Source of the DNA: a virus
Taxonomy: Duplodnaviria; Caudoviricetes
DNA length: 57,109 nt
Strand: one strand, 5' to 3'
Virus record (IMG/VR): IMGVR_UViG_3300047300_000237
Span: 1 to 57,109 of that record
Numbering within the stretch: position 1 is the stretch's first letter; each line of letters opens with the position of its first letter. The position numbers and the translations under genes were made by a program. This document shows positions 5,122 through 33,831 of this stretch, piece after piece. The notes under the pieces were generated by a model, which was not told the origin of the DNA, ran no database searches, and saw only the letters and a program-made list of their open reading frames with translations.

Positions 5122-5198
5122 GCGCCGGTAGTTCAACTGGATAGAATACGAGTCTTCTAAACTTGGGGTTGCAGGTTCGAGCCCTGCCCGGCGCGCCA
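5122..5198 (+). tRNA. tRNA-Arg(TCT), solitary
   Basis: Cloverleaf, loop CTTCTAA, GGTTCGAG T-arm, CCA end. Confidence 0.93.
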
Positions 5199-25897: not shown

Positions 25898-27013
25898 ATG
25901 TATAAACTTAAGGTACCCGTTGCAGAATCCAAGTTTGTTGGCACCGAGCCTGTATGGGCTGATGGTTATGAGCCAGCAGACTATCAACGAGAATTCGGTA
26001 ATGCCCTGAACTGGTATAATTATATTGCCGACGCCAAAGATTGTCGAGCATTTTTGGTTGACTGGTTCAAGAGTGACAAGCAGAAGTTAAAGGCTCTTAG
26101 TCAGGTACCTGATAAGTTTCTTCCTCGAACCTATGCGAATACCGCTCGTATCGCTCTACGAGGGTTCCCAGTTAGCGAAGTTCATAAGAATCGCATCTGG
26201 GAAAAGGTAGAGGAAGTAGTCAATAAGCGCATCAAGTCCGACGAAGATGAGCCAACTGCCGAACCGACTGCCAAGATTGTCAAGCCAATCAAACTGGCAT
26301 CTACTTACATCCTTTCGGATGTCAATGACGAAATTGAAAATCTAATCAACGGCGAAGACACTAAAACTATGGGTCAGATCCTGATGCCATACAAGATGTC
26401 TGATAAGCAGTATATGGAATGTGCAGATAAGTTGCAGCCTCTTCTGGCAGAATATGCCGAAGTGCTTGAACTTCGTCGGACTAATCGTAAGACTTTGACC
26501 GAAGAACAGAAAGAGTTCATGGACTCTTTCCCATTCTCTGGCATCACAATCATCAAGAACATTGTTCAATTGATCGAAGGTTATATTAACGACCTCAAGA
26601 AGTCTTATATCAGCAAGTCTGTTGCCAAGGTTCGTAAGAAGAAGCCCAAGGACAAAACAAAGTTGGTCAAGGGCATCAAGTATCTTGCCGAAGATGAAAA
26701 GTTCGGTAAGAGCGTTGATCCTGTCAACCTTCTGAATTGTAGCGAAGTCTGGACTTTTGATACTAAGACCCGTAAGTTGTCTAAGTATTTCAGTCCGATC
26801 GGCGGTGGCATCACTGTGAAGGGTGCCTCGCTTATTGGCTATGAAGAGTCGATGTCCAGTTGCAAGTTGCTACGAAAGCCAGAAGATCAGATTCCTGCTT
26901 TTACTGCTACTGCCAAAAAAGACTTGACAAAGTGGTACTCTTCTGTTAAAAGTAAGACTGCGAATGTTCGCCCTCGACTTACGGCAACAACTCTAATTTT
27001 GAAAGTGTTTTAA
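25898..27013 (+). CDS. Conserved T4-like hypothetical protein
   Basis: ALNWYNY, FDTKTRKL, LRKPEDQ; TTGACA-17-TATATT promoter upstream. Confidence 0.8.
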   Translation: MYKLKVPVAESKFVGTEPVWADGYEPADYQREFGNALNWYNYIADAKDCRAFLVDWFKSDKQKLKALSQVPDKFLPRTYANTARIALRGFPVSEVHKNRIWEKVEEVVNKRIKSDEDEPTAEPTAKIVKPIKLASTYILSDVNDEIENLINGEDTKTMGQILMPYKMSDKQYMECADKLQPLLAEYAEVLELRRTNRKTLTEEQKEFMDSFPFSGITIIKNIVQLIEGYINDLKKSYISKSVAKVRKKKPKDKTKLVKGIKYLAEDEKFGKSVDPVNLLNCSEVWTFDTKTRKLSKYFSPIGGGITVKGASLIGYEESMSSCKLLRKPEDQIPAFTATAKKDLTKWYSSVKSKTANVRPRLTATTLILKVF

Positions 27014-29244: not shown

Positions 29245-29649
29245 ATGGGCGCAATTCTGGAACATAAGCATCTAATTATCCGCGCGGAACTTAAAAATCC
29301 ACCCAAGTGCGCGGAAGCCATTCAAGATTGGATGAAGGTGCTGGTCGATAAGATCGGCATGAAGATACTTATGGGTCCATATGCGGTCTATTCTGATATG
29401 GTTGGCAATCAAGGTCTAACAGCCGTTACGATCATTGAGACAAGTCATATTGCAATGCATGTCTGGGATGAAGTTGATCCCGCTTTGATGCAACTGGATG
29501 TCTACACATGTTCTACATTGAACATTCAAGATGTCTTTGAGGCTTTGAGCGACTTTTCTCCAGTGGATGTGCAATATAAGTATATTGATCGTGAACATGA
29601 CTTGACATTGCTGGACAAAGGTGTTATAAGTGAGATACTTCCTCTTTAA
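29245..29649 (+). CDS. speD: S-adenosylmethionine decarboxylase proenzyme
   Basis: IIETSHIAMHVW cleavage motif, LDVYTCS. Confidence 0.88.
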   Translation: MGAILEHKHLIIRAELKNPPKCAEAIQDWMKVLVDKIGMKILMGPYAVYSDMVGNQGLTAVTIIETSHIAMHVWDEVDPALMQLDVYTCSTLNIQDVFEALSDFSPVDVQYKYIDREHDLTLLDKGVISEILPL

Positions 29650-30136
29650 ACACCGAGATGAAATCTGGCTTGTAAAGGATCCCAATATTGTTCCTAAGCC
29701 CAGAGAACTTTTACTTCAAAATTCTAATATCGAATTTATTAGAGAAAAAGTAAAAAGTTTAGGAAAAGGGTTGACATTTAGGGACAAAGTTAGTAGAAAG
29801 AAGATACCGAATTTGACAGCAGAGCATAAACGAAAAATTGCTCTAGCGTTAAGCGGTAGTAACAACCCCAACTGGGGTGGTTTGAAAGAAGAAACCAAAG
29901 CCAAAATTCGGCGTAAGATGCGCGGAACTAGGCGTAACGAAGATAATCCTATGTATGGTAGGCGCCAAACATGGGAAACTCGCAATCTCATAGCAATGAG
30001 AGCGAGGCAAAGAAGAAGAGCGTGGTGTGTAGAACCATCTGGTAAAACGCATTTGGTTGATCCAGTCACGTTCATTTTACCTTCTGGTTGGATGTGGGGA
30101 AGATTTTACGATCCATATAAACCAGAAGATTTTTGA
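29630..30136 (+). CDS. NUMOD3 DNA-binding repeat protein without a recognisable nuclease domain
   Basis: TAEHKRKI..GSNNPNWG, EETKAKI, NPMYGR. Confidence 0.7.
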   Translation: MRYFLFKHRDEIWLVKDPNIVPKPRELLLQNSNIEFIREKVKSLGKGLTFRDKVSRKKIPNLTAEHKRKIALALSGSNNPNWGGLKEETKAKIRRKMRGTRRNEDNPMYGRRQTWETRNLIAMRARQRRRAWCVEPSGKTHLVDPVTFILPSGWMWGRFYDPYKPEDF

Positions 30137-31124: not shown

Positions 31125-31967
31125 AAATGGGGGCATAGCCTCGTTAGAATAACCTTGGTAACAAGGCCAAAGCAGGGAATCCTACGCACCTGCGCCAGTG
31201 ATGGTTCATCTATGCAAGCCCAAGTTAGAGATGACTCGCCGTTGTGCGAAAGCATCTCCCGTCAATAGGATGGCGGTAGGCAGTAAGTGAGTGATATAGT
31301 CCGAAAGGATAAGAACAGAGCCAGTCGGTGAGTTCTAATAGACTGTGGTGGTCTGGCTGTATCAAACCAAACTCGCGAATGCTGAAAACTAATGGGTAAT
31401 CGCTAAGTCTGACTTCGCAAGGGAAGGCAAAGCGGTAGTATGATAGTTGAACCGATGAGGGGAGACTTGAAATACGGTTGAGTAGCCCGCAAGGCAAAAG
31501 ACATGAGGAGTGTTGTATTTTGTATCTAACAAGATACGAAGCAACTGGAGCAGCACTTCTTGGTAGGTTCGCAAATTGTCTAATGGTAAGACAACAGTTT
31601 TAGATACTGTCGATCTAGGTTCAACTCCTGGTTTGTAACAAAAAGCGAAAGACTGCTCCAGTGCTATGTGAAAGGTGCTTAATACCTAACACGGAAGTGA
31701 ATTGGGTTCACGGATTCCCGCAAGGATGAAGTGATTGATCCGAGCGAAGACGTAGCGGTTTAGCGACTGCGAATAGCCCGCAAGGCTAGCGGAAGAGCAA
31801 AGGTCGAATAGCATAGCATGATAAGTGACAAGCCACACTTCAAAAAAGGCAGCACTGAGGAATACTAGATGACCAGCGATGGCTCTAGTGGATAACGGGT
31901 TAACACTTCTCGCAAGGAAGTCGGTACGGCTCAAAGGTCCTCACTAGAAGGTGTAATCTCAACCTTC
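31125..31967 (+). ncRNA. Large ornate RNA, probably GOLLD-like (~840 nt; 5' boundary approximate)
   Basis: No credible ORF; many GAAA/GCAA-capped hairpins; long-range stems; 3' GAAGGT-GTAATCTCA-ACCTTC hairpin; located in a phage tRNA cluster as GOLLD RNAs are. Confidence 0.75.
31567..31639 (+). ncRNA. tRNA-like domain embedded in the large RNA (anticodon-position TAG, no CCA)
   Basis: GTC-TAATGGTAA-GAC D arm, ACAGT-TTTAGAT-ACTGT, CTAGG-TTCAACT-CCTGG. Confidence 0.7.
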
Positions 31968-32621: not shown

Positions 32622-32715
32622 GGGCCCTTAGTTTAGCGGTAAAACACCCGCCTTATACGCGGCATCGTCTCCAGATTAGAGAGCGTCGGTGGTTCGAATC
32701 CACCAGGGCCTACCA
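32622..32715 (+). tRNA. tRNA-Ile(TAT) with a long extra arm
   Basis: Loop CTTATAC, ~24-nt variable region, canonical T arm, ACCA end. Confidence 0.8.
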
Positions 32716-32974: not shown

Positions 32975-33057
32975 GGGCACGTGGCGAAATTGGTAAACGC
33001 AACGGACTTAAAATTCGTCGAGAAATCTTGCGGGTTCGAGTCCCGCCGTGCCTACCA
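32975..33057 (+). tRNA. tRNA-Leu(TAA)
   Basis: Loop CTTAAAA, V-arm, CCA end. Confidence 0.95.
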
Positions 33058-33063
33058 GTTTAT

Positions 33064-33144
33064 ACCCTCGTATACCCTCTGGCTACGAACCAGTTGAAAG
33101 GTTAACTGAATGACATGCAGGTTTGAGTCCTGTCGAGGGTTCCA
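33064..33144 (+). tRNA. Atypical tRNA-Arg(ACG) lacking a D arm at the normal position
   Basis: ACCCTCG/CGAGGGT acceptor, CTGG-CTACGAA-CCAG, long insert before the T arm, TCCA end. Confidence 0.7.
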
Positions 33145-33149
33145 AGTTT

Positions 33150-33225
33150 CGGGAAGTGGCGCAAGTGGTAGCGCACCTGCTTTGGGAGCAGGGGGTTGCA
33201 GGTTCGAGTCCTGTCTTCCCGACCA
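33150..33225 (+). tRNA. tRNA-Pro(TGG)
   Basis: Loop TTTGGGA, CCA end. Confidence 0.95.
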
Positions 33226-33290
33226 GGGTAGAGTTTTCGGTAATCTCTAGCACGAAGGCGGTGCACTTAGCCAAGCGTGAAAACCGACCC
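33226..33290 (+). ncRNA. Small structured element abutting the tRNA-Pro 3' end
   Basis: GGGT/ACCC, GTTTTC/GAAAAC, TAGAG/CTCTA, GCAC/GTGC pairings. Confidence 0.4.
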
Positions 33291-33296
33291 GTTTTT

Positions 33297-33390: not shown

Positions 33391-33831
33391 ATGTATGATC
33401 AAGCAAGAGAAGCAATTCTAAATTCTAGTGAATCGTCATCTGTTTATATTGGTGCCGATTCTATTCGGTTCAAGCGCAAAGACGGTCATTGGTACGCCAA
33501 GTATTCTACCGTTATTATCCTTCACATGGATTCTAAGCACGGCGCCAAAATTTTCCACAAAAATATAGAAATGCGAGACTTCGGTAACTTGCGCCAGCGT
33601 CTGATCACAGAAGCAGGCTTTGCAATCGAAGCGGCGACAAGTATTCTTGATGTTTTGGGTGATAGAAAGTTAGAAATTCATCTTGACATTAACCCAAATC
33701 CCAAGTATAAGAGTAATATCGCAGTGAAAGAAGCACTGGGATATGTAAAGGGTTCTCTTGGTATTGATGCTAAGATCAAGCCAGAGTCCTTCGCTGCTAC
33801 ACATGCAGCGGACCATGTAGTGCGGAATTAG
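33391..33831 (+). CDS. RNase H-like YkuK (DUF458) family protein
   Basis: YIGADS, EIHLDIN, AADH; stop codon lies inside tRNA-Val. Confidence 0.85.
   Translation: MYDQAREAILNSSESSSVYIGADSIRFKRKDGHWYAKYSTVIILHMDSKHGAKIFHKNIEMRDFGNLRQRLITEAGFAIEAATSILDVLGDRKLEIHLDINPNPKYKSNIAVKEALGYVKGSLGIDAKIKPESFAATHAADHVVRN

Follow-up and report, generated by a model that had tools for sequence, protein, structure and literature searches.

D-armless mitochondrial tRNAs need adapted partner proteins. Circularly permuted tRNA genes, in which the 3' half precedes the 5' half, and split tRNA genes are known from the red alga Cyanidioschyzon and from Archaea; they give a standard cloverleaf after processing. The allo-tRNAs have acceptor/T arrangements off the usual 7/5 (8/4, 9/3 or 9/4 among allo-tRNAs and tRNA-Sec). 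In a normal tRNA the D loop is locked to the T loop by the pair G19-C56. In the passages concerned, a review of non-canonical tRNAs from 2020 describes metazoan mt-tRNA-Ser(AGY) and nematode mt-tRNA-Ser as flexible molecules that have lost the D loop, and lists tRNA-Sec as departing from the 7/5 acceptor/T cloverleaf (PMC7609411). For the arginine tRNAs of Bacteria, the relevant passages of another paper name A20 in the D loop as the main determinant of arginyl-tRNA synthetase (ArgRS), unique among the tRNA families; the identity set consists of A20, C35 and G36 or U36, with A, G or U as discriminator (PMC9976931).

The window considered here, a stretch of 57,109 nucleotides, comes from a divergent T4-like myovirus, with a DNA polymerase about 50 % identical to those of cyanomyoviruses. 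UvsX, a DnaB-like helicase, a primase and ribonucleotide reductase are encoded as well. ARAGORN in default mode finds 27 tRNAs in the window, and the element at 33064-33144 is not one of them; it is not called in the intron and mitochondrial modes either, and the tRNA model of Rfam (RF00005) gives no match to it at E ≤ 10. The element occupies a 92-nt gap between a tRNA-Leu(taa) upstream (32975-33057) and a tRNA-Pro(tgg) downstream (33150-33225), followed by the open reading frame 33391-33831 for an RNaseH-like protein. Contigs from RNA libraries of two studies span it (X15, 33010-33195, and X18, 33062-33226, a close relative, at depths of 2.1 and 4.3); they show no RNA ends and may stem from DNA carry-over, and are therefore not counted as evidence of expression.

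From comparison with its relatives, the element is likely to be a functional elongator tRNA-Arg(ACG) and a member of a widespread family of arginine tRNAs from phages and mobile elements in which the D arm is strand-swapped. Its parts, together with the second arginine tRNA of the window, are the following.

33064..33070, + strand: 5' strand of the acceptor stem (positions 1-7), 7/7 pairs with 33134-33140
33071..33073, + strand: start of the connector, UAU (U8, A9 and one more base); U8 and A9 invariant in 69 ACG-type and 33 UCU-type sequences
33074..33076, + strand: ACC at connector positions 4-6, counterpart of the 3' strand of a D stem, pairing with GGU 33100-33102 in covarying columns
33077, + strand: single base resembling position 26, treated as unpaired; its candidate partner pairs in 10/33 sequences
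33078..33094, + strand: anticodon arm, with stem 33078-33082/33090-33094, loop 33083-33089 (CUACGAA) and anticodon ACG at 33085-33087
33095..33099, + strand: linker of 5 nt joining the anticodon stem and the relocated D-stem strand; the first one or two bases vary, AAA is conserved
33100..33102, + strand: GGU, equivalent of the D-stem 5' strand, covarying partner of 33074-33076
33103..33110, + strand: U and the relocated D-loop motif AACUGAA, with G18 at 33108, A19 at 33109 and A20 at 33110
33111..33116, + strand: linker between D loop and T stem, with AU at its end (invariant in 69 sequences)
33117..33133, + strand: T arm, with stem 33117-33121/33129-33133, loop 33122-33128 and U56 at 33124
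33134..33144, + strand: 3' strand of the acceptor stem (33134-33140), discriminator U73 (33141) and encoded CCA (33142-33144), read from the sequence
5122..5198, + strand: canonical tRNA-Arg(UCU) called by ARAGORN, the sole other arginine tRNA of the window

The patterns used to search for relatives contained the anticodon loops, AAAGGU, AACUGRA, GGAGUAU and A20, so the constancy of these segments in the sets obtained with them was imposed by the search. The connector U and A are numbered 8 and 9 after the canonical tRNA of a related contig (L023, see below), an assignment made by analogy. The acceptor stem with CCA, an anticodon loop of 7 nt with U33 and A37, and the T arm are those of a standard tRNA (RF00005), and the closed D hairpin between positions 9 and 26 is missing; a 7-nt connector takes its place in all 69 ACG-type and 32 UCU-type sequences. 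An earlier note on this DNA had read an arginine ACG tRNA with intact acceptor, T stem and CCA, and had called it the only reader of CGN codons in the window; both points hold, with a 7-bp acceptor stem, a regular T arm and UCU as the only other arginine anticodon called. The layout that it gave, with about 8 nt before and about 23 nt after the anticodon stem, is confirmed with exact lengths of 7 nt (between acceptor and anticodon stems) and 22 nt (between anticodon and T stems). Two details belong to the window element: its anticodon stem has 4 bp and a U.U at 27-43, a feature of its subtype, and its T loop carries U instead of the usual C at position 56, compensated by A19. A direct repeat, TATACCCTC at 33061-33079, was considered as a trace of duplication and rejected; it is a chance product of the acceptor of this lineage and is absent in relatives with other acceptor stems.

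Relatives with the anticodon ACG were gathered in several ways. Via the neighbouring protein (33391-33831) 35 IMG/VR loci were collected, and the element was detected by BLAST in 12 of them; at one locus (L029) the neighbouring protein is only 58 % identical and the element 86 %. An exact 36-nt match to the core of the window element is absent from the viral contigs searched, so degenerate motifs were required. The motif scan of viral contigs gave 100 stretches, 75 of them distinct, and 73 of these 75 have the full layout although no pairing filter was applied. A scan of 185,579 species genomes gave 23 stretches, of which 10 are real, among them Bradyrhizobium sp. BR13661 and several alphaproteobacterial MAGs. 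Six of the real genome loci were scanned for tRNAs. In five (Bradyrhizobium and four alphaproteobacterial MAGs) the element lies within arrays of 15-23 tRNAs, in which a canonical Arg CCG is present, in some together with UCU and CCU, and a canonical ACG is absent; the sixth (L148, a 24.8-kb contig from a Bacteroidetes MAG) carries 16 tRNAs, none of them for arginine. Cultured phages with the ACG form are Streptomyces phages (Mildred21 and others), the Microbacterium phage A3Wally and the Rhodococcus phage Trina. Altogether the phage contigs, the cultured actinophages and the tRNA arrays of Bacteria gave 69 distinct ACG-type relatives.

A search with the Trina copy as query led to enterobacterial phages in which the same layout carries the anticodon UCU. 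This form matches 268 records of cultured phages, 256 of them over at least 80 % of its length, and its carriers include Felix O1, phi92, the PBECO4-like jumbo phages, Klebsiella phages KB57, Roth37 and Sugarland, and Proteus phage Mydo. A UCU motif scan of viral contigs gave 91 stretches, 60 of them distinct, with 32 real members; the remaining distinct sequences were discarded as AT-rich chance matches. No match to the UCU-type element was found in 5,426 complete E. coli genomes, which argues against a resident prophage or a chromosomal gene in this species; in E. coli the UCU form is a property of virulent phages. A descriptor blind to the anticodon was run on 256 loci and the window (2.24 Mb), and additional hits of a covariance model were also checked. 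The only anticodons found were ACG, UCG, UCU and CCU, all of them for arginine; the other descriptor hits were rejected as canonical tRNAs, mostly of class II, which the descriptor had misread. UCG occurs in L041, L046, L116 and Mildred21 (91367-91442), and CCU in L076, a contig that carries three rewired arginine tRNAs (ACG, UCU and CCU). Most family members are about 76-79 nt long overall. The linker between D loop and T stem varies from 4 to 21 nt across the family, with an extra hairpin there in some members, and CCA is encoded in most members whose contigs also encode CCA in the neighbouring tRNAs.

The shared helices are supported by covariation in a MAFFT alignment of the 69 distinct ACG-type sequences. 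Changes on both sides were found in 7/7 pairs of the acceptor, 5/5 of the anticodon stem and 3/5 of the T stem. The covariation score is 0.642 in comparison to 0.200 in shuffles (none of 500 reached the value), and controls with slid helices give at most 0.142. The acceptor cells are paired to 100 % in this set, a value inflated by a filter that kept sequences with at least 11/12 acceptor-plus-T pairs and at least 4/5 anticodon-stem pairs, by which the variety of pair types is not affected. In a second alignment of 110 rows, which was fitted to a covariance model and includes four non-members (three canonical tRNAs and one odd tRNA-like RNA), 99.9 % of the acceptor cells are paired; the T stem is paired to 99 %. 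The UCU-type set and the 110-row set gave the same result for the helices as the 69 ACG-type sequences.

There are two further contacts, whose pairing was never used for the selection of sequences. The first is a helix of 3 bp, here called the D-stem analogue. One of its strands consists of connector positions 4-6, the other of the base triplet that is followed by a U and the D-loop motif. In the 32 UCU-type sequences 96/96 cells are paired in eight combinations (CUC/GAG, CGC/GCG, CAU/AUG, CAG/CUG, CGG/CCG, CUU/AAG, CAC/GUG and CGU/ACG), in comparison to a mean of 67.6 cells (sd 3.4) in shuffles, of which 0/2000 reach 96, and the three pairs are also 100 % paired in a structure-blind MAFFT alignment of this type. 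Elsewhere the analogue is ACC/GGU in the subtype of the window, UCC/GGA in Trina, CCG/CGG in the UCG copy of Mildred21 and CGG/CCG in the CCU member. Among the 110 rows, column pair 12-79 is occupied by CG in 74, AU in 28, GC in 2 and UA in 2, and column pair 13-78 by CG in 69, UA in 18, GC in 11 and AU in 8; in a B subtype two of the pairs are C-G (in its UCG variants G-C and C-G) and the third is a C.A, which leaves 40 cells in the category "other". A fourth pair at connector position 7 was dropped, being paired in only 10/33 sequences. The second contact is the elbow pair 19-56, which is G:C in 63 and A:U in 6 of the 69 ACG-type sequences with no mixed case, the window being one of the six; these A19:U56 sequences may go back by descent to one or two events. 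In the model-fitted 110-row alignment, with its four non-members, the counts are 97 GC, 6 AU and 6 other.

Read from these data, the chain would run from the acceptor through U8-A9-N, the D-stem 3' strand of three bases and one further base into the anticodon arm, then over a linker of 5-8 nt to the D-stem 5' strand (three bases), a U, the D loop (A14 A15 .. G18 G19 A20) and a short linker ending in AU, and finally into the T arm, the acceptor, N73 and CCA. The two strands of the D stem would pair across the anticodon arm, and their helix is presumably stacked on the anticodon stem, the usual arrangement in tRNAs. Since the retained strand enters the anticodon stem like positions 22-26 and the moved strand enters A14 like positions 10-13, the stacking would be the normal one, with the loop pointing toward the T loop. 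The covariation of 19-56 indicates that the elbow of D loop and T loop is kept, and hence probably the L shape, which the earlier note had regarded as possible. That note had placed the whole D arm 3' of the anticodon. As far as the sequences tell, this is right for the D loop and the D-stem 5' strand, which are moved to the 3' end of the variable region, and has to be corrected for the 3' strand, which stayed in place in the 7-nt connector. The rewired topology as such is borne out by the D-loop sequence 3' of the anticodon arm and by the covariation in the family, and the same topology, for which it had proposed a search in other phages, was found in the 69 ACG-type relatives as well as in the UCU, UCG and CCU forms.

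The kind of gene from which the rewired form may descend is seen in the related contigs L022 and L023, in which a canonical tRNA-Arg(acg) lies at the same place just upstream of tRNA-Pro. The L023 gene (3697-3774) shares with the element the 7-bp acceptor, U73, CCA, the anticodon loop, the T arm and the total length. Its D loop starts with AACUGGA including A20, like the relocated motif; a run GAAAGGTT over the last base of the anticodon stem and the variable region matches the 5-nt linker of the element, and both forms have a run GAAAGGUU after the anticodon loop. The acceptor stem of the canonical tRNA in L022 and L023 differs in one base from that of the rewired copy in L021. In contrast to the canonical tRNA-Arg, which has a closed D hairpin at positions 9-26, the rewired form has only the 3' strand there, and the 5' strand and loop lie between variable region and T stem. 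The shared place and parts suggest that the rewired form is derived from such a gene and can replace it.

Single-sequence folding of the element is unremarkable (z = -0.65; 48/200 shuffles fold equally well), so the case against chance rests on the comparison of sequences. A covariance model built without the window element from the 32 UCU-type sequences and the Trina copy gives the element 49.9 bits (E 2.9e-12), whereas the canonical tRNAs of the window score at most 31 bits; a second rewired tRNA in the window was not found by this model. With the Rfam tRNA model the relatives score 25.2-34.9 bits, on either side of the gathering threshold of 29 bits. RNAalifold predicts the helices of the acceptor, of the anticodon arm (4 bp) and of the T arm, but not the 3-bp D-stem analogue. 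That the standard finders reject the element and that its folding is unremarkable would also be expected of a decaying tRNA-Arg pseudogene, in which the D arm was lost and a junk insertion gained. Such decay is extremely improbable in view of the 69 distinct ACG-type and at least 32 UCU-type sequences from unrelated phage groups, the compensatory changes in every helix including the new one, and a length fixed at about 76-79 nt in most members.

The proposed fold of the window sequence has -19.5 kcal/mol, and the minimum free energy is -21.3 kcal/mol. With a lowered threshold (-ps80) ARAGORN calls a tRNA at 33074-33144 whose acceptor is taken from the second copy of ACCCTC, with a stem of 5 bp and an anticodon loop of 8 nt that is read as "aagg". 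However, this 5-bp stem takes up the 3' strand of the anticodon stem, so that only members with that stem sequence could form it, and most relatives have other acceptor stems and lack the ACCCTC repeat. Another arrangement would be a tRNA without a D arm in which the local hairpin GTTA/TGAC, pointed out in the earlier note, forms a long variable arm, and at -20.9 kcal/mol it is slightly lower in energy than the proposed fold. The window does contain this hairpin, but of the 69 distinct members just 1 has all of its pairs, and most have at most 2/4 of them. Both of these folds taken together are very unlikely, and the strand-swapped D arm is preferred.

The reading as a working tRNA-Arg is based on four observations: the rewired genes are hardly ever redundant, they fit the codon use, they would fill a known gap in Felix O1, and they carry the identity bases of ArgRS. 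Among 175 locus-by-anticodon cases from 169 loci there are only 4 in which a canonical tRNA shares its anticodon with the rewired one; each locus covers part of a genome, with a median of 12 canonical tRNAs, and a canonical duplicate may exist elsewhere in the genome. Among the arginine codons of the window CGU, CGC and CGA together make up 66 % and AGA 21 %, and these major codons are the ones covered by the element, after conversion of A34 to inosine, and the canonical UCU tRNA. For Felix O1, the genome paper reports an over-representation of AGA and states that, contrary to expectation, no matching tRNA had been found (PMC3185647). A rewired UCU gene lies unannotated at about 25951-26029 of this genome, between tRNA-Ile and a gene for an HNH endonuclease. 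The arginine identity bases are all present in the window element, with A20 at 33110, C35 at 33086, G36 at 33087 and U73 at 33141. The host ArgRS would charge the element through A20, C35 and G36, and the host TadA would convert A34 into inosine via the unchanged anticodon loop, so that CGU, CGC and CGA would be read; we infer that the RNA is processed, charged, modified to I34 and used by the ribosome. The restriction of the family to arginine fits a single origin followed by changes of the anticodon within the arginine set, which ArgRS tolerates, and it may also reflect a pressure specific to arginine tRNAs.

This restriction to one amino acid across four anticodons can be read differently. 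Colicin D is an enzyme acting on all isoacceptors of tRNA-Arg, and the range of the family resembles the specificity of such enzymes. The element might then be a tRNA-shaped RNA outside decoding, charged or not: a decoy or sponge for a nuclease or modifier that targets tRNA-Arg, or an RNA with some other non-translational role, whose odd core might block use by the ribosome and keep the recognition surfaces. A related proposal exists for long bacterial tRNA arrays, whose tRNAs may be sponges for toxin RNases as their authors suggest in the relevant passage (PMC8421152), and RtcB lies beside one array that carries the element. However, a decoy would have no need to fill a missing anticodon, as the 4/175 redundant cases indicate, or to fit the codon use of the phage, nor would it need to combine a perfect 7-bp acceptor with an encoded CCA, a T arm and A20. 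Moreover, canonical and rewired forms at the same locus of related phages suggest that the two are interchangeable. We therefore regard a role outside decoding as improbable and continue with the element as a decoding tRNA-Arg.

Why a decoding tRNA should be rewired is a separate question, for which only a tentative and rather doubtful answer can be offered, namely that the swapped D arm has spread among virulent phages and the tRNA arrays of Bacteria as an adaptive counter-measure, by which a closed D hairpin needed by some nuclease was removed. The surfaces for ArgRS, TadA, EF-Tu and the ribosome would be kept and the closed D hairpin would be gone. The enzyme depending on this hairpin could be a host enzyme specific for tRNA-Arg, such as a colicin-D-like or defence nuclease, or an activity of the phage itself that degrades host tRNAs; once the normal tRNA-Arg was destroyed, the rewired tRNAs would keep arginine decoding going. 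The evasion of host tRNases that the earlier note had considered would not extend to a nuclease guided by the anticodon loop only, as the canonical tRNA of L023 has an identical loop; an enzyme that requires the closed D hairpin might be evaded.

Several genes in the surroundings of family members concern RNA repair. RtcB adjoins the Bradyrhizobium tRNA array carrying the element, an RNA ligase gene stands at the end of the tRNA cluster of A3Wally, and an RNA-repair HAD domain is found beside one family member. A link of RtcB with long tRNA arrays is already mentioned in parts of the paper on these arrays (PMC8421152), and the neighbouring repair genes are suggestive rather than evidence on the motive. 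The open reading frames within 120 nt of 106 rewired elements (the 110 rows minus the four non-members, some elements being without a nearby frame) number 105, with six HNH and two GIY-YIG-type matches; these counts cover rewired elements only, and no association is claimed from them; three further nearby frames are annotated as HNH in their records.

Judged by their sequences, rewired arginine tRNA genes recur in hundreds of phages and go unrecognised in databases. The ACG form of the cultured Streptomyces, Microbacterium and Rhodococcus phages is either unannotated or labelled "tRNA-OTHER", a label that is found on the copies in Trina, Roth37 and REP11. The UCG copy of Mildred21 (91367-91442) is annotated as tRNA-Phe(gaa), and in Yaboi, a candidate member known from the position of the match alone, a tRNA-Val feature lies under the search match. 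In the full-text literature searched, mostly without subscription journals, the layout is undescribed; the supplementary tables of the tRNA-array and Felix O1 papers might list such genes. The passages considered of the 2020 review give no description of it and contain neither "phage" nor "permut" (PMC7609411), and the same absence of a description applies to those of the tRNA-array paper (PMC8421152) and of a survey of 4-bp anticodon stems (PMC13092985).

If the rewired tRNAs are charged and used, the strands of the tRNA core need not follow one another in a single fixed order, and bacterial translation would accept a tRNA with a D stem built from two segments far apart in the chain. This would matter for the question of what specifies the L shape and for designing orthogonal tRNAs. 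An immediate practical consequence is that the annotations of many phage genomes lack arginine tRNAs or mislabel them, which biases studies on phage tRNA sets and codon use. Arginine is the only amino acid for which the main synthetase determinant of the tRNA is in the D loop, and the restriction to it points to a specific selective pressure that could be tested in coliphage systems.

Compared with the known systems, the rewired family shares with the D-armless mitochondrial tRNAs the short connector where the D arm belongs. However, in those tRNAs the D-loop and D/T contacts are lost, whereas the rewired family keeps the D loop elsewhere in the molecule, a D-stem analogue and a covarying 19-56 pair, and it occurs in phages that use ordinary bacterial machinery. 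With the class II tRNAs (Leu, Ser and bacterial Tyr) it shares a long stretch between anticodon and T stems. These tRNAs have a normal D arm and a self-contained extra hairpin, whereas the rewired form is without a D hairpin and has a complete local hairpin in 1/69 members, its extra stretch pairing with the 5' connector and carrying the D loop. Like the circularly permuted and split tRNA genes, it departs from the standard order of tRNA parts, but its acceptor strands stand in normal order with a terminal 3' CCA, and it would be the mature RNA itself that is newly connected. The allo-tRNAs and tRNA-Sec, finally, are natural and working tRNAs off the 7/5 arrangement and resemble the rewired family in their departure from the standard form; what they alter is the length of the helices, not the order of the strands.

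In part of the ACG-type members of the rewired tRNA-Arg, in which the D arm is strand-swapped, the relocated D loop is separated from the T stem by an additional 10–17 nt. These members belong to the B subtype, whose D-stem analogue consists of two Watson-Crick pairs plus C·A, and were found at the loci L043, L049, L086, L088, L110, L120, L042, L057, L079, L087 and L154. Since the added stretch is able to fold as a small hairpin of its own and the paired bases vary from member to member, it may represent a further arm of the rewired tRNA.

In Bradyrhizobium sp. BR13661 the rewired Arg(ACG) sits within an array of at least 17 tRNAs, directly followed by the gene of the RNA ligase RtcB:
L149 6606–7943, tRNA array and RtcB site of the Bradyrhizobium contig
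Because ordinary metabolic genes (PdxA-like and Fe-alcohol dehydrogenase) are located upstream, the site appears to be a long tRNA array of the chromosome and not a prophage.

Two protein genes of the window lie in or next to its tRNA cluster:
29630–30136, NUMOD3-motif protein, close upstream of the cluster
33391–33831, RNaseH-like protein (PF04308), inside the cluster
The NUMOD3 motif is typical of homing endonucleases. The RNaseH-like protein shows 58–94 % identity across 29 related contigs. Two tRNAs of the window have a length unusual for their type, tRNA-Ile(tat) at 32622–32715 with 94 nt and one tRNA-Leu(tag) at 31569–31639 with just 71 nt. The 71-nt spacer between tRNA-Pro and tRNA-Trp (33226–33296) was not called by any of the tools applied, and in one related RNA-library contig it is exchanged for 637 other letters. 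The base 33074, part of the connector between acceptor and anticodon stems of the rewired tRNA, is missing from one RNA-library contig of low depth (2.1); its absence could reflect a sequence variant or an error of the assembly.

Other contigs contain two more tRNA or tRNA-like genes:
L041 3635–3709, minus strand, tRNA-like RNA distinct from the rewired type
L007 3337–3411, ARAGORN call of a CUA-anticodon tRNA, given as 'Pyl'
In the former, the acceptor and T arms are good and CCA is present; it further has a 5-bp stem closing an 11-nt loop, along with the stretch AAUUGGAG. A recognisable 7-nt anticodon loop is absent from it. The latter adjoins tRNA-Pro in the contig of a related phage and is possibly an amber suppressor.

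Several rewired tRNA genes have an HNH or GIY-YIG/T5orf172 homing-endonuclease-type gene at a distance of up to about 120 nt, an adjacency recorded for rewired tRNA genes alone:
L256 1251–1643, homing-endonuclease-type gene
L162 874–1383, homing-endonuclease-type gene
L137 1126–1488, homing-endonuclease-type gene
L257 1–166, homing-endonuclease-type gene
L218, L203, L187, L176, L128, L209 and L076, further loci with such a gene
Among cultured phages, a gene of this type overlaps the 3' end of the rewired tRNA in Felix O1 and stops 1 nt ahead of the tRNA in the Streptomyces phage Mildred21.
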